Shown one piece after another: positions 20,162-55,818 of a stretch of 64,000 nt of DNA. Under the pieces are notes generated by a model. The model ran no database searches. It was not told the DNA's origin and saw only the letters and a program-made list of their open reading frames with translations. This stretch comes from Candidatus Moraniibacteriota bacterium. Lineage in GTDB: Bacteria > Patescibacteriota > Minisyncoccia > Moranbacterales > UBA1568. The position numbers and the translations under genes were made by a program. The stretch lies in NCBI GenBank assembly GCA_043743535.1, contig JAYTWI010000009.1, positions 3,407 through 67,406 on the forward strand. The letters are read 5' to 3'. Within the stretch, counting starts at the first letter, position 1; each line of letters starts with the position of its first letter.

Positions 20162-21202
20162 ATGGCCAAGGCAAAACAGGGGGAAATATCAGGCAAAGAC
20201 AAACTGAAGAGCGTGGTAGATGCTATCGAAGAAAAGTTCGGCGAAGGCATCATCATGAAACTGGGTGATATGCGCAAAGTCGATGTCGAAGCTATCCCAA
20301 CTGGTTCGGTGTCGATCGATATCGCCCTCGGAATCGGTGGGGTGCCGCGTGGCCGCATCGTCGAGATCTATGGTCCGGAGTCTTCCGGCAAGACAACGCT
20401 CTCGCTCCATATCGTGGCCAACGCCCAAAAGGCAGGTGGCATCGCAGCCTATGTCGATGCCGAGCACGCGCTCGATCCAGACTACGCTAAGCGCATCGGC
20501 GTTAATACAGCCGACCTCCTCATTTCTCAGCCGGACACAGGCGAGCAAGCCCTCGATATCGTGGAGACTCTGGTACGATCCAATATGGTGGATGTTATCG
20601 TTATCGATTCAGTGGCGGCTCTGGTACCCAAAGCAGAGATCGAAGGCGAGATGGGGGATCAACACGTGGGGCGCCAAGCCCGACTGATGTCTCAGGCCTT
20701 GAGGAAATTAACGGCTATCATCGCTCGTTCTAATGTGGTGGTGATTTTCATCAACCAGATTCGTATAAAGATTGGGGTGATGTTCGGTAACCCGGAAACA
20801 ACGAGTGGCGGTCAGGCCTTGAAATTTTACTCCTCCGTGCGTATTGAGATCAGACGTTCAGCCCAGATTAAGAAAGGGGAGGACGTGGTAGGAAATCGGG
20901 TCAAAGTCAAAATCGTCAAAAACAAAGTAGCAGCGCCATTCAAGACCGCAGAATTTGATATTATGTACAACGAGGGTATTTCTTTGGCCGGCGATGTGCT
21001 CGACAGCGGGGTGAAGTATGCGGTGCTCAAAAAATCGGGCAACTCTTTCATCTACGGCGATGTCAAGTTAGGAGCTGGGCGGGAAAGTGCCAAGGCGTTT
21101 CTCAAAGAAAATTTGAAAGTACAAAACGAAATCGAGCAGCTCATTCTCAAAAGATCCAAGGAAGCGATGCCAGAAATCCAAGGTGGAGAGGAAGAAAAAT
21201 AA
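20162..21202 (+). CDS. recA: recombinase RecA
   Basis: [60 protein letters not shown]. Confidence 0.95.
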
Positions 21203-30250: not shown

Positions 30251-30336
30251 AATAACAGGTATCCACCTGATTTTACCAGCACTCGCTCGGAAACAAAAGT
30301 GCACTTTTGTTTCACTCGCTTCGTTTGGTAATAAAA
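30251..30336 (+). repeat. intergenic repeat family copy 1 (~86 bp, contains perfect 24-bp palindrome GAAACAAAAGTGCACTTTTGTTTC)
   Basis: AATAACAGGTATCCACCTGATTTTACCAGCACTCGCTCGGAAACAAAAGTGCACTTTTGTTTCACTCGCTTCGTTTGGTAATAAAA; near-identical to copy at 38251. Confidence 0.9.
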
Positions 30337-30339
30337 AAA

Positions 30340-38250: not shown

Positions 38251-38339
38251 AATAACAGGTATGCACCTGATTTTACCAGCACTCGCTCGGAAACAGAAAA
38301 TGCACTTTTGTTTCACTCGCTTCGTTTGGTAATAAAAAA
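38251..38339 (+). repeat. intergenic repeat family copy 2
   Basis: AATAACAGGTATGCACCTGATTTTACCAGCACTCGCTCGGAAACAGAAAATGCACTTTTGTTTCACTCGCTTCGTTTGGTAATAAAAAAG. Confidence 0.9.
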
Positions 38340-39848: not shown

Positions 39849-40295
39849 ATGCGTTGTCCATTTTGTAATCACGAAGAGACCAAGGTAGTGGATTCCCGCG
39901 AGACTCAGGAAGGGCGGGCGATTCGTCGTCGCCGGCAGTGCGAAGACTGCCAGGCTCGTTTCAGCACTTATGAGGAGGTGGAAATTTTTCGACTTTTGGT
40001 AGTGAAGAAGGATGGCCACAAAGAAGAGTATGACAAGACTAAGATCGAAAAGGGTTTACGCCGGGCTTTCGAAAAACGGCCGCAGGCAGAAGAACGTATC
40101 GAGCGCATCTTAGGCGAGATCGAGTACACACTCCACGAGCGACAGGTGAGCGAGATCTCCAGCCGTGAAATCGGCAGTCTCATTATGGAGAAACTGAAAG
40201 CTGTGGATGAGGTTGCTTATATCCGTTTTGCTTCGGTCTATAAATCTTTCGGCAGCGCCAAAAGTTTCCGTAAAGCTTTGGAGACCCTCGATTAA
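39849..40295 (+). CDS. nrdR: transcriptional repressor NrdR
   Basis: MRCPFCNHEETKVVDSRETQEGRAIRRRRQCEDCQARFSTYE zinc ribbon plus ATP-cone. Confidence 0.85.
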   Translation: MRCPFCNHEETKVVDSRETQEGRAIRRRRQCEDCQARFSTYEEVEIFRLLVVKKDGHKEEYDKTKIEKGLRRAFEKRPQAEERIERILGEIEYTLHERQVSEISSREIGSLIMEKLKAVDEVAYIRFASVYKSFGSAKSFRKALETLD

Positions 40296-40296
40296 A

Positions 40297-41772
40297 ATGA
40301 GAAAAGATCAGGTCTTCTTTGGTAGCCTCCTCAGTTTTATCATTGGGGTCGGAGTCGGTTCATTTTTGAATTTTTCTTTTGCTTTCACTTGGTATCTCGG
40401 GACTGCTCTCATTGGAGCGGTTTTCTGTCTCTTCCCGAGAAGGATAATTCTTCTTTCATGGTTGTTTTTCTCTCTGTTTCTTTGGGGCACGTTCATCGCT
40501 TCTCAGGCCGAGCTTAGTTTTGCTCATCTGACATTTCCGACGACCGAGCGTGTGGGTGAAGTGCGTGTGATCAGTAATCCAGAGGAGAAAGGTTTTTTTC
40601 AAAAGGTCATTGTCCGTTTCACGGATTGTGTTGGAGGATGTCCGACGAAAGACATCTTGTGGCAAGCACCAGTGTCAACGATGATTGAAGCCGGTGAGCG
40701 CTTGCAGTTTCGTTGCCATCTAGCACGGCCAGAAAATTTCAGTGCTGATTTCGACTACCGTATGTTTTTGGCCAAAGATGGGATCGGTTTTTTGTGTCAA
40801 CATGCTACGTTAGCCGAAAAATTACCCGGGGATACGCCGGGACGCGTCAGTGCCGCCCTCTATGTGTTGAAGCATGCCTTGGAACGGGCTCTTTCTCAAA
40901 GTATTCCTGAACCGGAAGCGGGGCTGGCTAAGGGACTATTGCTTGGCGGCAGCAGCTATCTCCCTGATGCTTTGCAAAATGCTTTCACCCGAGTGGGGCT
41001 GACCCACATCGTGGCGGTGTCTGGTTACAATATCACTCTCATTGCGGAGGGACTGCTCTTCCTCGGATTATTTTTTGGTCTGTGGCGTAAGCAAGCGTTG
41101 TGGGTAGCATTTTTTGGCATTGTCTTTTTTATCCTGATGATTGGAGCGCCTGCCTCGGCCACGCGGGCCGGCTTTATGGCTGGAGTGGCCTTTGCGGCAC
41201 TTCAGGCTGGGCGTTTGGCGCGACCGCTCAATGCTTTGCTTTTGGCCGCCTCGATTATGCTTCTTTTTAATCCCTTGCTCTTGCGTTATGATGTCGGCTT
41301 TCAACTCTCCTTTTTGGCAACGTTGGGTATTATTTTTGTCTTGCCGTATATTGAGCGGGTGCTGCCCGAAAAGTTGCTTGCCCAAAGCGTGGGTGAGATC
41401 ATTCTTATGACTATGGCAGTGGAACTTTTTGTCTTACCGATTATCCTCTTTTCGTTTCATCGTTTTTCGCCGCTTATCATCGTGGCCAATTTTCTCATCA
41501 TCGTGGTACCTTTCGCTATGGCGGCTTCGTTTGTGGCTGGAGTGTTGTTCTTGCTCTTACCGGGGACACATACTCTTTTTGCCTGGCTTGCCTTTGCTCT
41601 TTTGACGTTCATTACCCGATCAGTCGAATGGTTGGGGGCTATCTCTTCAGCCAGTGTAACGATCGACGGTTTTGGAGTGAAGAGTCTGTTACTGTGGTAC
41701 GGAGTACTCTTTTTCCTTGTCAGATGGGGCGAGAAGCACTATGCTCAAAAAAACTATGACTACGAAAAATAA
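40297..41772 (+). CDS. comEC: ComEC/Rec2-family competence membrane channel (DUF4131 + competence domain, no fused MBL domain)
   Basis: ATG overlaps nrdR stop (TAAAATG); GLLLGGSSYLPDALQNAFTRVGLTHIVAVSGYNITLIAE; many TM helices. Confidence 0.8.
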   Translation: MRKDQVFFGSLLSFIIGVGVGSFLNFSFAFTWYLGTALIGAVFCLFPRRIILLSWLFFSLFLWGTFIASQAELSFAHLTFPTTERVGEVRVISNPEEKGFFQKVIVRFTDCVGGCPTKDILWQAPVSTMIEAGERLQFRCHLARPENFSADFDYRMFLAKDGIGFLCQHATLAEKLPGDTPGRVSAALYVLKHALERALSQSIPEPEAGLAKGLLLGGSSYLPDALQNAFTRVGLTHIVAVSGYNITLIAEGLLFLGLFFGLWRKQALWVAFFGIVFFILMIGAPASATRAGFMAGVAFAALQAGRLARPLNALLLAASIMLLFNPLLLRYDVGFQLSFLATLGIIFVLPYIERVLPEKLLAQSVGEIILMTMAVELFVLPIILFSFHRFSPLIIVANFLIIVVPFAMAASFVAGVLFLLLPGTHTLFAWLAFALLTFITRSVEWLGAISSASVTIDGFGVKSLLLWYGVLFFLVRWGEKHYAQKNYDYEK

Positions 41773-41856
41773 CAGGTATTTACCCGATTTTACTGGCACT
41801 CGCTCGGAAACGAAAGTAAACTTCGTTTCGCTTACTTCGTTTGGTAATAAAAAACT
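41769..41856 (+). repeat. intergenic repeat family copy 3 (diverged, with compensatory change in palindrome arms)
   Basis: AATAACAGGTATTTACCCGATTTTACTGGCACTCGCTCGGAAACGAAAGTAAACTTCGTTTCGCTTACTTCGTTTGGTAATAAAAAA; overlaps comEC stop codon. Confidence 0.85.
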
Positions 41857-41860
41857 CAGA

Positions 41861-42691
41861 CTGTTAATTTTTTGTTTGGCGCTCACCGTCTTCTTAGGGA
41901 TCCTTTTTTGCTTTTGGTTTTTCTGGCAGTATCAAAAAACAGAAGTAGTGTTCTTGAATGTGGGTCAGGGCGATGCCATCCTCATCTCGCAAGGGACGAA
42001 TCAAATACTGATCGATGGCGGGCGGAGTAGTAAAGAACTCCTGGCACATTTGGGGCGCCACATGCCATTTTGGGATCGCCGCATCGAAGCGGTTATTGCC
42101 ACCCACCCGGATGCCGACCATATTGGTGGTCTGCCAGCTCTCTTTCGGGCTTATCAGATCGGAGCAGTGTTCTACACGGGGGCGGAAAGTGACACGGAGA
42201 CTGACCGACTCTTTTTAGCGGGAGGAGAGAAGAGTACTGGGCACGCTCTCTACACCATTTTTCACGGTGGCAGTATGGAATTTCCAAAGGGAGGGAAACT
42301 TTCGATTGAATATCCACAGACGGCACTGCCCAAAGAAGCCAAGGACACCAACGAGGGGAGTATCGTGGCTCGGTTCGTGTATGGCGAAACAAGTTTTCTT
42401 TTGACGGGGGACTTGCCGCACGAAGAAACGGTCTTGCTCGATGAGGCACCAGTGACGGTACTCAAGGTAGCGCATCACGGTTCCAAGTATTCATCGAGTG
42501 AAGATTTCCTCAAGATGGTGGAACCGAAAGAAGCCATCATTTCCGTCGGTCAGAATAGTTATGGCCATCCAAATCAGGGCGTGCTAGAACGTTTACAGAA
42601 GATAGGGAGTATCATTCATCGGACAGATCAAGAAGGGGACATTGTTTATACTTGTTTAGCTATGATCAAACAATGCCACTTTGTGAGATGA
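41861..42691 (+). CDS. membrane-anchored MBL-fold metallo-hydrolase (stand-alone ComEC C-terminal beta-lactamase-like domain)
   Basis: VVFLNVGQGDAILIS, ATHPDADHIGG, VAHHGSKYSS; start codon unresolved (ORF-track ATG 41717 lies inside comEC and reads through the repeat; CTG 41861/TTG 41876 possible). Confidence 0.65.
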   Translation: MLIFCLALTVFLGILFCFWFFWQYQKTEVVFLNVGQGDAILISQGTNQILIDGGRSSKELLAHLGRHMPFWDRRIEAVIATHPDADHIGGLPALFRAYQIGAVFYTGAESDTETDRLFLAGGEKSTGHALYTIFHGGSMEFPKGGKLSIEYPQTALPKEAKDTNEGSIVARFVYGETSFLLTGDLPHEETVLLDEAPVTVLKVAHHGSKYSSSEDFLKMVEPKEAIISVGQNSYGHPNQGVLERLQKIGSIIHRTDQEGDIVYTCLAMIKQCHFVR

Positions 42692-42826: not shown

Positions 42827-43438
42827 ATGAGTACGCACGCCCATCCCAAGAAAGAACGCACCCTGGTTATTTTGAAACCTGACGCTATTCAGCGCTCGCT
42901 CATCGGCGAGATTATGAGGCGTATCGAACGGGTCGGACTGAAGCTCGTCGCAGTGAAACTATTGTTGGCGACGGAAGAGCAGTGCTGGGCGCATTATCAA
43001 AAGGATGATGAATGGTATCTGAAAAAAGGGCAGCGCGTCATCGATGATCGCAAAGAACACGGCCTAGCCGTTGACAAAGAACCATTGGAATACGGTAAAG
43101 ATATCATCCGAACGATTGTTGACTATATGGTATCCGGTCCGGCTCTCGGTCTGGTAGTGGAGGGTTTAGGGGCGGTCTCGGTCACCAAAAAACTGGTGGG
43201 CGGCACGGAACCGAGTACTTCTGATGTCGGCACTATCCGTGGTGATTTTACCATCGATACCTACGGTGTTTCTGCCCTAGACAATCGGGCTGTGCGCAAC
43301 CTCGTGCACTGTTCCGATAGTAAGGAAGAAGCGGAACGGGAAATCCCCATCTGGTTTGAAAAGAAAGAAATCATCGATTATCGTTTGGTACAGGAGCAGA
43401 TTCTCTATGATGTAAACCTCGACGGCATTCTGGAATAA
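42827..43438 (+). CDS. ndk: nucleoside diphosphate kinase (long form)
   Basis: RTLVILKPDAIQRSLIGEIMRRIERVGLKLVAVK..., NLVHCSDSKEEAEREIPIWF; insertion relative to canonical 140-aa NDK. Confidence 0.8.
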   Translation: MSTHAHPKKERTLVILKPDAIQRSLIGEIMRRIERVGLKLVAVKLLLATEEQCWAHYQKDDEWYLKKGQRVIDDRKEHGLAVDKEPLEYGKDIIRTIVDYMVSGPALGLVVEGLGAVSVTKKLVGGTEPSTSDVGTIRGDFTIDTYGVSALDNRAVRNLVHCSDSKEEAEREIPIWFEKKEIIDYRLVQEQILYDVNLDGILE

Positions 43439-43464
43439 GAGCGAAAAAACATGAATTTTTACCA

Positions 43465-43492
43465 AAGACTTCCTACGAGGAAGTCTTTTTGT
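43465..43492 (+). terminator. rho-independent terminator after ndk
   Basis: AAGACTTCC-TACGA-GGAAGTCTT + TTTTT. Confidence 0.8.
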
Positions 43493-43503
43493 GTTCAAAT
43501 GAC

Positions 43504-43546
43504 TTGACAGCTGTGGGTTGACAGGAGGGAAGAATTGGCGTATAGT
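43504..43546 (+). promoter_or_regulatory. consensus sigma70 promoter (tandem TTGACA boxes; TTGACA-17-TATAGT)
   Basis: TTGACA 43504-43509 and 43518-43523; TATAGT 43541-43546. Confidence 0.65.
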
Positions 43547-43676
43547 ACACATTGTACGAAGGGTCACGAGCCCTCTGTATAGGATGTTCTTAGGAGAGTT
43601 GTTACGCAACTTTCCGCAAGGGTTCTCGCCGCAAAACGCGAGCGTAGGTTGTTTTACAATATGAAAAGAGAAAAAG

Positions 43677-43940
43677 ATGGCAATCATACCATTTGCTACT
43701 ATTGAGGGTGCGCAGAAATCTATTTTTTCCAGCACCCCCACGCCAAAACCCTCTGACAGTAGCCAACCGGACACCCCTGATGTCGGTGGTTCGTTGGTTG
43801 TCGCGACGTCGACCAATCGTATGTCTCTGGCGACGGAGCTATCCCGCGTTGTCGATACCGATCGCCACAAGCCAGCGGGGAGCGACAAAGCGTGGGAGTA
43901 CCATGTCGGCGATTCGCGTCTGTCTCGCCAGATTCGTTAG
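43677..43940 (+). CDS. hypothetical small protein (orfA of GC-rich cassette)
   Basis: 87-aa ORF downstream of consensus promoter and ~130-nt leader; GC ~58%; frame choice uncertain in GC-rich DNA. Confidence 0.3.
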   Translation: MAIIPFATIEGAQKSIFSSTPTPKPSDSSQPDTPDVGGSLVVATSTNRMSLATELSRVVDTDRHKPAGSDKAWEYHVGDSRLSRQIR

Positions 43941-43949
43941 GAGCACATC

Positions 43950-44138
43950 ATGACAGAAAAGGTTGCCCTCGAAGAGGGCGAGCTACCGCTGCAGAAGAAA
44001 GTTGTTCTGGCGCCACCACCGCAAGTGGTGGTTCATGTGCACGACATTGAGCACAACATCTCGCTTGTCGGGGTGCGCGAGCCCGGGCAACACAGCTACC
44101 GCTATTGCCCGGAGGATGATCCGCCCTCCGAAGGGTGA
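43950..44138 (+). CDS. hypothetical small protein (orfB of GC-rich cassette)
   Basis: 62-aa ORF with AGGAG RBS 7 nt upstream of ATG; followed by hairpin and terminator. Confidence 0.35.
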   Translation: MTEKVALEEGELPLQKKVVLAPPPQVVVHVHDIEHNISLVGVREPGQHSYRYCPEDDPPSEG

Positions 44139-44168
44139 GTCGCCGGTAACCACCGGCTAAGCAACACA

Positions 44169-44203
44169 GGGAGCATTCATCCGAATGGCTCCCTTTTCAT
44201 TTA
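44169..44203 (+). terminator. rho-independent terminator closing the small-ORF cassette
   Basis: GGGAGCATTC-ATCC-GAATGGCTCCC then TTTTCATTT. Confidence 0.7.
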
Positions 44204-44247
44204 CTCCAAATTTTGCTAGGCTCTCTAAGTGCTATATTTTTATACAG

Positions 44248-44321
44248 CGGGCTGTAGTATATCGGCAGTACGCGTGCATGGGGTGCACGTAGGCCGGGTT
44301 CGATTCCCGGCAGCCCGACCA
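44248..44321 (+). tRNA. tRNA-Pro (anticodon GGG)
   Basis: acceptor CGGGCTG/CAGCCCG, D-arm GTAT..GTAC, anticodon stem CGTGC/GCACG with loop ATGGGGT, T-arm CCGGG-TTCGATT-CCCGG, discriminator A, encoded CCA. Confidence 0.85.
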
Positions 44322-44331
44322 TAAAGAAAAA
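44285..44331 (+). repeat. 47-bp direct repeat copy 1 (tRNA-Pro 3' half from anticodon-stem 3' strand through CCA plus TAAAGAAAAA)
   Basis: GCACGTAGGCCGGGTTCGATTCCCGGCAGCCCGACCATAAAGAAAAA identical at 44646-44692. Confidence 0.9.
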
Positions 44332-44457
44332 TAAGGCTGGGGGGCGTAAAGCAAACTGCTTTGCTTTACGCGGGTATTTCCGTAAGTCGTCTCTGGCTTA
44401 CGGATAAAAAACACCCCGGAACTTGTAGTAGCAGTTCGATTCTGCTTACCCCGACAT

Positions 44458-44547
44458 TTTTGGTTTATTACCAAACGAAGCGAGTGAAACGAAAGTGTAC
44501 TTTTGTTTCCGAGCGAGTGCTGGTAAAATCGGGTGAATACTCGTTAT
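44458..44547 (-). repeat. intergenic repeat family copy 4 (reverse orientation), inside the tRNA-flanked insert
   Basis: plus strand TTTATTACCAAACGAAGCGAGTGAAACGAAAGTGTACTTTTGTTTCCGAGCGAGTGCTGGTAAAATCGGGTGAATACTCGTTATT. Confidence 0.85.
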
Positions 44548-44645
44548 TCTTCATGTACGCGGCATGGGGGTAAAAAGTGAACTGCTTCACTTTTTACGGT
44601 TTTCTTCGAAAAGCGTCTCTGTTTTTCGGGAAAAGAAAACCCGGA

Positions 44646-44692
44646 GCACGTAGGCCGGGTTCGATTCCCGGCAGCCCGACCATAAAGAAAAA
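44646..44692 (+). repeat. 47-bp direct repeat copy 2 (partial tRNA-Pro 3' half; att-like)
   Basis: perfect match to 44285-44331; no 5' tRNA half upstream. Confidence 0.9.
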
Positions 44693-44693
44693 A

Positions 44694-44719
44694 CCTCCCC
44701 CAAATGGGGGAGGTTTTTG
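44694..44719 (+). terminator. rho-independent terminator
   Basis: CCTCCCCC-AAAT-GGGGGAGG + TTTTT. Confidence 0.8.
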
Positions 44720-44794
44720 ATATTAAAAAAAGACTATTATAAGGCATTATTTTGCGATTCTTTCTGTTCTTTGGTCTACGGATAGCAGTTGCTA

Positions 44795-44823
44795 TTGACA
44801 ATAAATCATTTTTGGTGTATAAT
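44795..44823 (+). promoter_or_regulatory. perfect-consensus sigma70 promoter TTGACA-17-TATAAT
   Basis: TTGACA 44795-44800, TATAAT 44818-44823. Confidence 0.7.
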
Positions 44824-44909
44824 AAAATGTTTAGTAATTTAATAAAAAAATAACTGGACGGCTCCCGTGGGGCACCCCCTCATTTCGCATCCCCTTACCC
44901 GGGGAAGGC

Positions 44910-45419
44910 ATGCGGCTCATTCTGGAGCTTTCCATGAACTACCTGCCTGCTGCCGCAACATTTGAGGAATTTCCTGTTCAGAGCCTTTGGGCTAAGCCGG
45001 AATTCAAGAAGAACAAGGTGTCACAGAAGACCCGATTTCTTCCCAAGACCGAAAGGCTTCTGGCATTGAACCGAGCGGATGAGGTCTCTGCGTATGACTT
45101 CCAGCCGCTACAGCACCATCAGCCATTAGCAAAGATGCGCATTCAGTTGGGTGACCAAGTGGTCTTCTCGGCCGCTATTCCTCTGACTCTGCAGGAAGAG
45201 ATGTGCGGAGGAGAGCCGATGCAGGTGCTCGGAGTGGAAGATTCCAATGTCGACACCATAATCGAGGTGCCTTTCGAATTCGGTACTGGCGAGGTGGTTT
45301 TTCCAGAACCCCTCGCGAGCGAAGACTTCATCGAAGTCACGGTTAAAACGACACTCGGATACCTCATGGTGGCTAATGCGAAATACTTCCGGCGTGTAGA
45401 GGAAGAAACCCTCGCATAG
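44910..45419 (+). CDS. hypothetical protein (orphan)
   Basis: 169-aa ORF downstream of consensus promoter; terminator hairpin GCCCGTATG...CATACGGGC at 45460-45490. Confidence 0.5.
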   Translation: MRLILELSMNYLPAAATFEEFPVQSLWAKPEFKKNKVSQKTRFLPKTERLLALNRADEVSAYDFQPLQHHQPLAKMRIQLGDQVVFSAAIPLTLQEEMCGGEPMQVLGVEDSNVDTIIEVPFEFGTGEVVFPEPLASEDFIEVTVKTTLGYLMVANAKYFRRVEEETLA

Positions 45420-45491
45420 CTCACAGTCCTACTGGTCTCCTCCAGTAGCCATATATCAAGCCCGTATGACATTATTCATACGGGCTTCTTC

Positions 45492-45531
45492 ATTACCAAA
45501 CGAGTGCAAAATCAGGTCAATAACTGTTATT
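45492..45531 (-). repeat. intergenic repeat family copy 7 (internal-deletion derivative lacking the palindrome)
   Basis: ATTACCAAACGAGTGCAAAATCAGGTCAATAACTGTTATT aligns to both ends of the family consensus in reverse orientation. Confidence 0.6.
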
Positions 45532-45540
45532 TTTAAATAT

Positions 45541-45571
45541 AAAAAAATCCCCGTTGAGCGGGGAATTTTTC
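45541..45571. terminator. bidirectional terminator (serves minus-strand rpmB)
   Basis: AAAAAAA-TCCCCG-TTGAG-CGGGGA-ATTTTTC. Confidence 0.75.
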
Positions 45572-45582
45572 TTTGATATGCT

Positions 45583-45759
45583 TTAAGCAGTGGCTTTGGC
45601 TAGGGTGCGGAGGGCTTTGGTGGAAAGCTTAATCTTCATACCGCCGATGCGGCGGGTTTGAATATTGACCTTGAAGGTGCGGCGAGTGGCGATGTTGGAG
45701 TGGCTACGGGCATTGCCAGTCTGCGTGCCACGGCCAGAAAGTTGACAGGTTCGACTCAT
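45583..45759 (-). CDS. rpmB: 50S ribosomal protein L28
   Basis: MSRTCQLSGRGTQTGNARSHSNIATRRTFKVNIQTRRI... matches L28 family. Confidence 0.8.
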   Translation of the reverse strand: MSRTCQLSGRGTQTGNARSHSNIATRRTFKVNIQTRRIGGMKIKLSTKALRTLAKATA

Positions 45760-45864
45760 AAGGATGCTTGAGATATTACTCACTGTACGCTATCATACCT
45801 TTGTCCCTTTGGCAAGACTAAGGGCACAATAGGAAGGAAAAAATACTCTGGTCTCAATAATCCC

Positions 45865-46617
45865 TTGCGAAATGAATCTCTAAAAGTCATCATTATGGCC
45901 AGTGAAATCGTTCTTGTCGGCTTCTATATCTTCACTCTTATCTATTCCGTCATTATTCACGAGGTGGCGCACGGAGTGATGGCACTGTGGCTAGGGGATA
46001 TGACCGCCAAATATGCCGACCGTTTGAATTTGAACCCTTTGAAGCACATCGATCCTTTCGGCTCGGTGATTTTGCCAGTGCTTCTTTTTGCCACTACGGG
46101 TTTTGCTTTTGGCTGGGCCAAGCCGGTGCCGTACAACCCGTATAATCTGAAGAATCAGAAATGGGGGCCGACCTGGGTGGCTTTGGCCGGGCCGGGAGCC
46201 AATCTCCTCTTGGCTTTTGTAGCAGCGTTCATTGCCAAGCTGTTGCCGATTGCGCTCTTGGTTAAAACAGATATCCTGGCACGTTTTATTGGAGTCATTG
46301 GTGGCCGAGGAGATTTTCTGGAACGTTTTCAGTTACTTTCTTTGGCGATGGCCGGATCGCTCCCAAATATTTTTTTCGGTCTACTACTCTTGGTGATTTT
46401 TTGGAACGTGGTGTTAGCCTGTTTCAATCTGCTCCCGGTACCGCCGCTTGATGGTTCCAAAATCCTCTATACCCTGTTACCGATCAAGGAGCGGACAATG
46501 CTCCTCTTGGAGCAGTATGGGCTTTTTGTTCTGATCTTCGTTATCTTTTTCTTTTCTGGTCCCATTAGCCTCTTTATCAATTTTGTCCTCGGTATGTTCC
46601 TGCGTTTTACGCTGTAG
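45865..46617 (+). CDS. site-2 protease family (peptidase M50) membrane metalloprotease
   Basis: HEVAHG HExxH in TM helix, NLLPVPPLDGSKIL LDG motif. Confidence 0.75.
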   Translation: MRNESLKVIIMASEIVLVGFYIFTLIYSVIIHEVAHGVMALWLGDMTAKYADRLNLNPLKHIDPFGSVILPVLLFATTGFAFGWAKPVPYNPYNLKNQKWGPTWVALAGPGANLLLAFVAAFIAKLLPIALLVKTDILARFIGVIGGRGDFLERFQLLSLAMAGSLPNIFFGLLLLVIFWNVVLACFNLLPVPPLDGSKILYTLLPIKERTMLLLEQYGLFVLIFVIFFFSGPISLFINFVLGMFLRFTL

Positions 46618-50655: not shown

Positions 50656-50689
50656 CCCGCGTAGGTCATTGACCAATGCGGGTTTTTTT
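50656..50689 (+). terminator. rho-independent terminator (compound hairpin)
   Basis: CCCGC-gtaGGTCAtTGACCaat-GCGGG + TTTTTTT. Confidence 0.65.
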
Positions 50690-50768
50690 ATTACCAAACG
50701 AAGCAGCTGAAACAAAAGTGTACTTTTGTTTCAGAACGAGTACCAATAAAATCAGGTGAATACCCTCC
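50684..50768 (-). repeat. intergenic repeat family copy 5 (reverse orientation)
   Basis: plus strand TTTTTATTACCAAACGAAGCAGCTGAAACAAAAGTGTACTTTTGTTTCAGAACGAGTACCAATAAAATCAGGTGAATACCCTCC. Confidence 0.85.
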
Positions 50769-55376: not shown

Positions 55377-55730
55377 ATGTCACGAAGTCTCAAAAAAGGT
55401 CCATACGTCGATCCCCGAGTTTTGAAAAAGATCGAGGGAAAGAAATTGGGTGATCGCGAAGTCATTAAGACATGGTCGCGCGCTTGTGTCATCTCGCCTG
55501 AGATGGTAGGGTTCACTTTCGGCGTACATAATGGCAAAATTTTCATTCCTGTTTTTGCGACCGAAGAAATGGTGGGTCATCGTCTGGGAGAGTTCTCCCC
55601 GACTCGTACCTTTCGTCGACACGGTGGCAAGATGCAGAAAGAAATTGAAATTGCCTCCAAGCAACGTGACTTGGATGCCGCTAAGGCCGCCAAATCAGCT
55701 ACTGCCGCTCCTACCGCCAAGAAGAAATAA
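55377..55730 (+). CDS. rpsS: 30S ribosomal protein S19 with Ala/Lys-rich C-terminal tail
   Basis: [20 protein letters not shown]...[18 protein letters not shown]. Confidence 0.9.
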
Positions 55731-55743
55731 CCTTTATGAAAAT

Positions 55744-55812
55744 GTTTTTTCCAGCACTCCATTCGGAATCAAAAATAAATTTTCGTTTCGCTCACTCCGT
55801 TTGGAAATAACC
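55744..55812 (+). repeat. intergenic repeat family copy 6 (degenerate) between rpsS and rplV
   Basis: TTTTTTCCAGCACTCCATTCGGAATCAAAAATAAATTTTCGTTTCGCTCACTCCGTTTGGAAATAACC vs consensus GATTTTACCAGCACTCGCTCGGAAAC...GTTTCACTCGCTTCGTTTGGTAATAA. Confidence 0.6.
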
Positions 55813-55818
55813 TGACTT

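Follow-up and report, generated by a model that had tools for sequence, protein, structure and literature searches.

Fragments of tRNA-Pro(GGG) split by a two-hairpin insert beside an intact tRNA gene in a Candidatus Moranbacteria genome

What kind of element, if any, leaves behind an intact tRNA gene followed by a perfect copy of its own 3' part? The question is raised by a stretch of 64,000 nt (hereafter the window, whose coordinates are used throughout) from Candidatus Moraniibacteriota bacterium, assembly GCA_043743535.1, contig JAYTWI010000009.1, positions 3,407-67,406 of the forward strand, in which a tRNA-Pro(GGG) gene is followed by two sequence modules, A and B. Each module is a 5'-truncated tRNA-Pro carrying a 76-78-nt insert directly after the G-run (GGGG) of the anticodon loop, in place of one T. 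Integration and replacement are concentrated at this locus, a hot spot at which the scars show an uncommon anatomy that recurs: tRNA-Pro fragments split by a two-hairpin cassette able to hold a tRNA. As to their origin, we tentatively favour, at somewhat less than an even chance, the reading that the segment contains relics of a family of small, non-coding, recombinase-less cassettes that target the anticodon loop of tRNA-Pro(GGG), are able to carry a replacement tRNA-Pro, and were later reshuffled by homologous recombination.

Anatomy of the two interrupted tRNA-Pro fragments

The intact gene (44248-44321, + strand), which encodes its own CCA, was recovered by ARAGORN as the sole tRNA of the window and by Rfam (RF00005, 52.6 bits against a gathering score of 29), in agreement with an earlier sequence-only reading of this DNA. 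Two tRNA-Pro(GGG) alleles were distinguished among the syntenic loci of relatives, which were collected through NDK and L28 homologs and labelled L001-L038: the allele named 'N' is that of the window, and the allele named 'O' is found in L001, L003, L006 and L032. A repeat finder matched 44282-44331 with 44643-44692 (50 nt, one mismatch), and within this match a 47-mer is perfect. Its first copy, at 44285-44331 (+), consists of tRNA positions 39-76 plus 10 nt of flank (TAAAGAAAAA), that is, the last 37 nt of the gene and 10 nt beyond it; the second, at 44646-44692 (+), makes up the 3' part of module B, again with N-allele positions 39-76 and the 10-nt flank. The repeat and the 314 bp it encloses were thus as first described. 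The interpretation attached to them, an att-like signature of integration into a tRNA 3' end, was upheld as regards an insertion and recombination hot spot at the tRNA, and was not upheld as regards the bracket, since the 314 bp comprise two separate interrupted tRNA-Pro fragments and a recent intergenic repeat, and not a single element bracketed by attL and attR.

Module A opens with an 11-nt remnant, AAGGCTGGGGG (44333-44343, +), corresponding to O-allele positions 28-38 (anticodon-stem 5' strand plus loop) and identical at 11/11 nt to the tRNA-Pro of L006, L001, L003 and L032 (CAAGGCTGGGGG). Insert A (44344-44421, +; 78 nt) follows and terminates in CCCCGGAA; it comprises hairpin 1 (44344-44371, +), with 12 bp and the loop CUGC, and hairpin 2 (44372-44416, +), with an outer stem at 44372-78/44410-16, an inner stem at 44379-88/44395-404 and the loop GUCUCU. 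The 3' part of the module (44422-44462, +), which covers its tail plus the next seven bases, contains O-allele positions 40-76 and the 3' flank proper to that allele (CTTGTAGT...TACCCCGACATTTTTGG), and it matches the resident tRNA-Pro and flank of L006 (1608-1648) at 41/41 nt. This tail had been taken for a diverged copy of the window tRNA; the 41/41 match makes it an exact copy of the other allele. The tail of module B had been described as identical to the window tRNA-Pro, and so it is.

Module B starts with GTACGCG-GCATGGGG (44555-44569, +), which, compared with 44269-44284 of the intact tRNA, represents N-allele positions 22-37 (D-stem 3' strand, then anticodon-stem 5' strand and loop) less one deleted nucleotide. 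The same deletion is present in L029 and L030, and the fragment also occurs, more decayed, in L006. Insert B (44570-44645, +; 76 nt) terminates in CCCGGA and is built in the same manner, with a 12-bp hairpin 1 with loop CUGC (44570-44597, +) and a hairpin 2 (44598-44641, +) formed by the outer stem GGUUUUCU/AGAAAACC, an inner stem at 44605-14/44621-30 and the loop GUCUCU. Hairpin 1 of insert B together with GGTTTTCTTC was flagged as terminator-like by the terminator prediction. Both inserts were delimited by hairpin search and folding, and the covariance model built from the two of them (R1) scored 110.7 bits for A and 100.3 bits for B; it found just these two copies in the window, and it also recovered L024 (E = 3e-5) and L010 (E = 1e-4).

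The second repeat copy had been described as having no 5' half, and the remnants that open the modules had gone unnoticed. Each module begins with the anticodon-stem 5' strand and loop that match its 3' part, which places the hairpins within the anticodon loop. The last tRNA base before the insert is G37 in the N copy but G38 in the O copy, indicating that the G-run is followed rather than a fixed tRNA position. Neither target duplications nor terminal inverted repeats are present at the insert junctions, which have no more than a 2-bp GG in common and from which one T has been lost. In the predicted fold, the CCCCGG at the insert 3' end would be able to pair with the anticodon sequence CUGGGG.

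Alignment of 44335-44456 with 44561-44682 gave 79% identity and, with the folding, bore out the description of two homologous modules, each with a 12-bp CUGC hairpin and a second hairpin. Although their stems have diverged, A and B have the same CUGC and GUCUCU loops, and the GUCUCU loop is closed by C-G in both. All hairpin pairs are standard in both copies (22/22), eight of them having changed on both sides, including a change from U-G to G-U; when the 3' partner was slid by 1-3 columns, the number of double-sided changes fell from eight to zero. The hairpins covary, and their wobble pairs are compatible only with the + strand, that of the tRNA, which points to a constraint on this strand. 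Both modules folded better than all of 200 shuffled sequences (z = -4.75 and -4.06). An acceptor-stem-like pairing between the 5' end of a module and its own 3' tail was considered and rejected, there being no covariation between A and B in this pairing.

The tRNA-Pro locus in relatives

NDK homologs assign the window to Candidatus Moranbacteria, within Patescibacteria, also known as the Candidate Phyla Radiation (CPR). Most of the relatives examined are without modules. An empty site, in which tRNA-Pro is directly followed by a terminator and then by rpmB, had been anticipated and was seen in L021-23 and L033-38, that is, in at least nine contigs of two lineages; rpmB used as synteny anchor yielded only such empty-site relatives. 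Loci L001, L004, L019 and L032 likewise have no module.

Rearranged or decayed versions of the same structure were found in several other loci. The closest relative found, L006 (94% identity in NDK), carries an intact O tRNA, a 22-nt spacer and a decayed fragment resembling module B. In L024-27, from four samples, the intact tRNA is followed by 11 nt, a decayed anticodon-arm remnant and hairpin 1, whose inner 20 nt are those of module A; next come hairpin 2 in a shortened form, CCCCGG, the remains of a T-arm and an exact 22-nt repeat of the locus's own tRNA end, which in L024 begins in the T-loop. Loci L029 and L030, two independent assemblies identical across the structure, have a tRNA identical to that of the window, followed by AATG-ACGATGAAGA-AAATTCCC-TGGA joined to GCACG..., that is, by the right end of the insert and N-allele positions 39-56. 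Further along they contain a GC hairpin, an O-type 3' end, 7 nt, and a GTACGCG-GCATGGGGG fragment joined to a decayed hairpin 1, and beyond this fragment about 2.3 kb with three open reading frames (ORFs) of no assigned function. The T-loop of the chimeric N/O tRNA-Pro fragment of L030 contains a GC-rich hairpin (CCCGCCAGAGGGCGGG...; 3530-3570), one more small insertion within a tRNA remnant. The module-type junctions, G-run to G-hairpin 1 on the left and CCCGGA to position 39 on the right, recur in O and N contexts in three clades. The recurrence is independent of any one assembly, given the identity of L029 and L030 and the four samples behind L024-L027; the window itself is represented by one assembly.

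Three loci with an identical NDK protein, L008, L009 and L010, are different at the tRNA site. The host position is occupied by the O allele in L008 and by an N-like (second) allele in L009. In L010 the host flank leads into a complete O 5' half with a 1-nt insertion, which shows that this half is decaying, and then into G-hairpin 1, a linker, TCTTCATCGT and the 5' half of a second tRNA-Pro. A different situation is found in L003, where the gene of a large serine recombinase (Resolvase, Recombinase and Zn_ribbon_recom domains; ~5290-6757, minus strand) reaches right up to the 3' end of a tRNA-Pro(GGG) that is not interrupted, the mark of an element of another kind at the same site. Five short-read contigs (L005, L008, L009, L010 and L020) end inside or at the end of tRNA-Pro, L009 and L010 right after ATGGGGT, suggesting that repeated tRNA-Pro segments or strain polymorphism broke the assemblies there. 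The contig end of L006 (1760-1900) is a perfect reverse complement of the preceding ~110 nt around the terminator, most likely an assembly artefact.

A tRNA carried inside the cassette is indicated by L010 and L030 taken together. The L010 linker GGGAATTTT and TCTTCATCGT are complementary to AAAATTCCC and ACGATGAAGA of L030, where the complementary blocks start 4 nt past the tRNA 3' end and run into TGGA/GCACG. The predicted duplex has -21.6 kcal/mol, against -10.6 +/- 2.9 for shuffled sequences (3/2000 as good) and -7 to -17 for the flanks of real tRNAs at other loci. This complementarity of the arms would mean that the hairpin 2 stems enclose a whole tRNA-Pro in that lineage, here a composite of two lineages; hairpin 2 of the window is the same bipartite hairpin, closed by six bases.

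The resident gene itself has evidently been swapped between lineages, a horizontal replacement to which the following sequence comparisons point. The window tRNA-Pro (44248-44319) is identical at 72/72 nt to L019 (6173-6244) and to L030 (3415-3486), with NDK identities of 82% and 80%, and it is only 65% identical to that of L006, despite 94% identity in NDK; homology in the upstream flank extends as far as the first tRNA base. The NDK tree, whose resolution is weak because it is based on one small protein, intermingles the O and N alleles as well as the lineages with modules and those with empty sites.

Origin of the split fragments

In the favoured reading, the left part of the cassette would consist of a G, hairpin 1, the linker and the 5' arms of hairpin 2, and the right part would run from the 3' arms of hairpin 2 through an A-rich stretch to CCC(C)GGA. 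The cassette would enter right after the anticodon-loop G-run, with the loss of one T, leaving the tRNA gene split and not rebuilt. A fuller form would hold a complete tRNA-Pro(GGG) in the loop of hairpin 2, so that the broken host gene would be replaced by the allele of the cassette. This cargo tRNA would be transcribed from the host tRNA promoter, as the absence of room for a promoter between hairpin 1 and the second tRNA of L010 suggests, and would be excised by ordinary tRNA-processing enzymes; the covariation of the hairpins would then reflect either the propagation of the cassette itself or the release of its cargo tRNA. Recombination of the RecA type among the repeated tRNA segments would delete, duplicate and convert pieces; recA is encoded in the window (20162-21202). 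Loci L008, L010 and L009 would resemble the before, inserted and resolved states, respectively.

Applied to the window, such a history would leave an intact replacement N allele at the host position; module A as a copy of the O allele that formerly resided there, truncated at the 5' end and split by an empty cassette; and module B as an older N copy, also 5'-truncated, in which a second, diverged empty cassette sits, with a 3' part homogenised with the live gene to give the 47-bp perfect repeat. The sequence 5' of module B (TTCTTCATG/TACGCG) resembles the GTCTTCATCGT/CGGGG...GTACGC of L010, suggesting that module B may formerly have been the cargo tRNA of an earlier cassette that was later hit itself. 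The mobility of the cassette, its mobilising enzyme, the expression and processing of the cargo tRNA and the order of events are all inferred. A bolder proposal, that CPR bacteria harbour a new class of minimal, protein-less, two-hairpin selfish cassettes that insert after the G-run, kill the resident gene and spread their own tRNA-Pro allele across lineages, this allele lying in the hairpin 2 loop and being read from the captured host promoter, and the cassettes being mobilised in trans or through a single-stranded intermediate, is considered somewhat unlikely.

Among described systems, tRNA-dependent lysogeny is, by analogy, the nearest behaviour. In certain actinobacteriophages, integration destroys the tRNA gene and the phage supplies a same-isotype tRNA (Guerrero-Bustamante and Hatfull 2024; PMC10865867). 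As in those phages, a tRNA gene is hit and not rebuilt, and the arrangement of L010 and L030 and the replaced allele of the window fit such a scheme. In the split junction of L010 the O 5' half is followed by hairpin 1 instead of a tRNA 3' part, and modules A and B are alike in this respect; as for an element-borne tRNA, a second tRNA-Pro(GGG) stands after the left part in L010 and a tRNA-Pro stands before the complementary right part in L030, two lineages being composited. However, those phages are 40-60 kb long and have their own tyrosine integrase and a common core of ~10 bp (PMC10865867), whereas the cassette has ~76 nt (~150 nt with its tRNA), no protein gene, no common core, its tRNA in a hairpin loop, and a CPR host.

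Islands and prophages that integrate in tRNA genes, where the gene is regenerated and a 3' fragment displaced, are the subject of the Islander principle (PMC4383910), and tRNA gene fragments have likewise been described (PMC9897764). The locus shares with them the direct repeat of the 3' part, the empty site, the variable island and the partial tRNA footprints; it differs in that the fragments are split in the anticodon loop by a two-hairpin sequence, in having two alleles, in a bracket of 314 bp, and in the lack of an integrase. The bracket had already been judged too small for such a gene; it is non-coding, and no recombinase domain was detected among the window ORFs scanned, next to the att site or elsewhere.

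Hairpin-ended, non-autonomous elements of the IS200/IS605 type include palindrome-associated elements and REP/RAYT systems, and the transposases of this type use guide nucleotides. A possible likeness to them lies in the two subterminal hairpins with related stems, in the insertion 3' of TGGGG in both alleles, in the lack of target duplication and terminal inverted repeats, and in the strand asymmetry. In contrast, hairpin 1 abuts the left junction, leaving no room for guide nucleotides, one target T is lost, and the 64 kb hold just two copies, each of them in tRNA-Pro; the window showed no TnpA-like gene, and its scanned ORFs no Y1 (HUH) transposase, a search covering 64 kb of the genome.

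Introns were rejected on several grounds. A group I ribozyme core (P3-P8) usually takes up over 200 nt; no match to such a core was found, the exons are incomplete, and Rfam returned only the tRNA, both at gathering thresholds (whole window) and at E <= 10 (44100-44950), the rest being terminator-driven noise. The group I tRNA introns of Patescibacteria resemble the inserts in phylum, in the kind of gene and in lying in the anticodon loop (PMC13011429). Those introns are self-splicing ribozymes found with group I models in complete genes (PMC13011429), unlike the present inserts, which have 76-78 nt, two plain hairpins and no Rfam match, and of which every host copy is defective. An archaeal or eukaryal bulge-helix-bulge intron was rejected by a hand test of both modules, since positions 32-35 are unable to pair with the four nucleotides required and 3-nt bulges are lacking. 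Transfer-messenger RNA (tmRNA), permuted tmRNA and a Y-RNA-like tRNA mimic were ruled out by anatomy and by the absence of Rfam matches. Nor was the suggested tRNA-targeting miniature inverted-repeat transposable element supported as a dispersed family: the insert ends have no terminal inverted repeats or target-site duplication, the covariance model gives two copies in 64 kb, and motif scans of the GTDB, JGI and IMG/VR collections gave chance matches only.

Several observations weigh against the cassette. No recombinase or transposase was detected among the window ORFs scanned or beside any module, the only one seen being the L003 serine recombinase next to an uninterrupted tRNA-Pro. The order found in the window (intact tRNA, 11 nt, module A from position 28), shared by L024, is not explained by one simple insertion, and one insertion plus one deletion was rejected as its history, as the order could not be derived without extra rearrangements. 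The junctions, with one T lost and no target duplication, are a poor fit to standard recombinase or transposase chemistry; a serine-recombinase model with a GG crossover fits the left junctions and predicts T where both right junctions have A. There are only two insert lineages (A/L024/L010 in O; B/L030/L006 in N), so that one or two ancient insertions followed by gene conversion of the exons could mimic mobility. The tRNA-carrying form is a composite, L010 ending inside the second tRNA, and no single contig shows the left part, tRNA, right part and 3' exon in a row.

Window-motif scans of GTDB species representatives, JGI metagenomes and IMG/VR, which gave no further copies, also count against it. 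Those motifs were strict, since CGTCTCTG, absent from L024 and L010, had to be present, and not even L024 would have been picked up, so that the scans were empty beyond the syntenic relatives partly because of the patterns used. Insert-loop patterns, with and without a T-loop or CCGGA anchor, gave one chance match in GTDB, in a coding region of Saccharibacillus, seven chance matches in coding DNA of JGI metagenomes, and 0, 0, 0, 0, 1 (chance match) and 0 matches in IMG/VR viral contigs. Blastn of 43000-46000 against the phage collection gave no match.

Four other explanations were weighed. Scars of tyrosine-integrase islands, which would have integrated at tRNA-Pro with a crossover in the anticodon arm or T-loop and been deleted later, leaving displaced 3' fragments and hairpins that are remains of the attP arm or of the element's terminators, have several features in their favour: the perfect 47-bp repeat of the tRNA 3' part and flank, the 22-bp repeat of L024 that begins in the T-loop, the empty sites of relatives, the cargo genes that vary in the tRNA-Pro to rpmB interval of the window, L030 and L024, the recombinase adjoining tRNA-Pro in L003, and the terminator score of hairpin 1 of module B. 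The fragments also begin at positions 22-28, which is where the identity blocks of anticodon-loop-targeting integrases reportedly start, as Williams is said to have noted in 2002. We nevertheless regard this origin as unlikely. A displaced fragment should run unbroken from the anticodon stem to the 3' end, whereas all those found are interrupted at the same point by homologous sequences of 76-78 nt; the L010 interruption lies in a complete 5' half at the host position and is followed by a second tRNA, which is not the product of a reconstituting integration; the two insert junctions have no core direct repeat of 6-8 bp; no integrase was found; and the stems differ widely between copies with pairing kept, unlike sequence-specific arm sites. 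A mosaic with no specific element behind it is quite improbable. Here natural transformation and homology-facilitated illegitimate recombination would have used the tRNA as anchor and the G-run as microhomology, the hairpins being an ordinary palindrome duplicated with its flanks. The presence of comEC and recA in the window agrees with such a process, as do the exchange of tRNA alleles across lineages, an arrangement that is different in every lineage examined, and the other palindromic intergenic repeats of the genome, one of which landed in the inter-module spacer. It is countered by the recurrence of the same two junctions in O and N contexts in three clades, by the precise enclosure of a tRNA by hairpin 2 in L010/L030, and by the covariation, which implies selection on the hairpins and not neutral decay.

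The same covariation lends itself to another explanation, that the modules are functional RNA genes under selection, either tRNA-derived small RNAs or an intron-like element, co-transcribed with tRNA-Pro. Eight compensatory pair changes with wobbles on the + strand only, identical CUGC and GUCUCU loops over diverged stems, stable folds (z about -4 to -5), an apparently single transcription unit up to the terminator at 44689-44718, and an insert at or next to the canonical 37/38 intron position whose CCCCGG can pair with CUGGGG all speak for it. Against them stands the fact that every interrupted copy is defective as a tRNA, the 5' truncations of A and B being at different points, B having lost and L010 having gained 1 nt, and the copies of L024, L006 and L030 being decayed. 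Moreover, an intact, uninterrupted tRNA-Pro(GGG) always stands beside the interrupted copy, no Rfam family was matched even at E <= 10, group I introns and small ribozymes included, an archaeal bulge-helix-bulge could not be drawn by hand, and the tRNA introns described in Patescibacteria are all of the self-splicing group I type (PMC13011429). We hold functional RNA genes to be distinctly improbable; the structured RNA put forward earlier is likewise unlikely as a conserved gene, in view of the differing 5' truncations, the decay in relatives and the absence of modules from most of them. An assembly artefact, through collapse or false duplication around the repeated tRNA segment, is hardly credible. 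Only a single assembly of the strain exists, as one contig, contigs of relatives often break in this tRNA, and L006 ends in a palindromic artefact; yet a false duplication would not give rise to modules that differ at ~20% of positions and have different tRNA alleles, assemblies made independently contain homologous structures (L029 and L030; L024-27 from four samples), and the 47-bp repeat is shorter than a sequencing read.

Surroundings of the locus and implications

The genes around the locus are ftsA, ftsZ, comEC, a metallo-beta-lactamase (MBL)-fold gene, ndk, two small ORFs, tRNA-Pro, rpmB, an M50 peptidase gene, rpsL, rpsG, fusA and tuf; recA, gyrB, efp, hisS and secY are likewise encoded in the window. 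Upstream of the tRNA, a weak promoter-like site read from the sequence, TTGCTA-16 nt-TATTTT (44213-44240, +), scores under the threshold of the consensus scanner; its TTGCTAGGCT motif is kept in L006 and L030. The consensus scan predicted no other + strand promoter ahead of 44795, and the site probably serves the entire 44248-44718 unit as its sole + strand promoter. This unit is closed by a strong bidirectional intrinsic terminator hairpin with 14-bp arms (44689-44718), identified by repeat and hairpin search and by terminator prediction, and the lack of a predicted + strand promoter between the tRNA and this terminator makes the region look like a single transcription unit.

Between the terminator and rpmB lies the cargo of a variable island (44795-45419, +), which is missing from the empty-site relatives and consists of a perfect TTGACA-17-TATAAT sigma-70 consensus promoter (44795-44823) and an orphan ORF of 169 aa behind it (44910-45419). 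No homolog of this ORF was found among 5.8 billion proteins, nor any Pfam or PHROG match, and it is weakly and collinearly similar to a 172-aa ORF (ORF172) of the equivalent L030 island (pairwise E = 2e-5). The island probably belongs to the same insertion hot spot, with a putative link to the modules.

The reverse copy of a palindromic intergenic repeat of ~85-90 bp, reported earlier within the segment, was located between the modules at 44464-44548 (-; repeat families D1-D3). The family (AATAACAGGTAT...TTACCAG...GGAAACAAAAGTGCACTTTTGTTTC...TTTGGTAATAAAAAA) is placed after genes across the window, with + copies at 30251-30338, 38251-38339, 41768-41854 and 55726-55814, a second - copy at 50687-50763 and an internally deleted copy at ~45493-45538. 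The absence of the 44464-44548 copy from the homologous L006 spacer indicates a later insertion into the spacer and a family that was recently mobile.

Some features elsewhere in the window were also recorded. Positions 1-2000 have a GC content of 0.33, against ~0.48 elsewhere, and contain two adjacent 202-aa ORFs without Pfam match (516-1124 and 1115-1723); this region may be another foreign island. The window NDK (42827-43438) has 203 aa and falls into two stretches of match to the Pfam NDK model, typical NDKs having ~140 aa; it carries an internal insertion relative to these, in a length common to the whole Moranbacteria group. The ComEC competence domain and the metallo-beta-lactamase domain are encoded by separate, slightly overlapping ORFs (40207-42691), and the presence of this split in all the relatives fetched points to a probably native arrangement rather than a frameshift.

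When Patescibacteria assemblies are annotated, partial tRNA-Pro genes that contain internal hairpins should be entered as scars, and not as tRNA genes or intron-bearing genes. Such loci also disrupt short-read assembly, as seen in the five examined contigs that end in or at this tRNA. If the array were made of ordinary integrative-element scars, it would still document an integration hot spot between ndk and rpmB in Moranbacteria, but not an unusual one. If the cassette reading is true, it would explain the presence of identical tRNA alleles in CPR lineages whose housekeeping proteins differ by 20%, and no smaller element would be known that makes itself indispensable by disrupting an essential tRNA gene and supplying the replacement.

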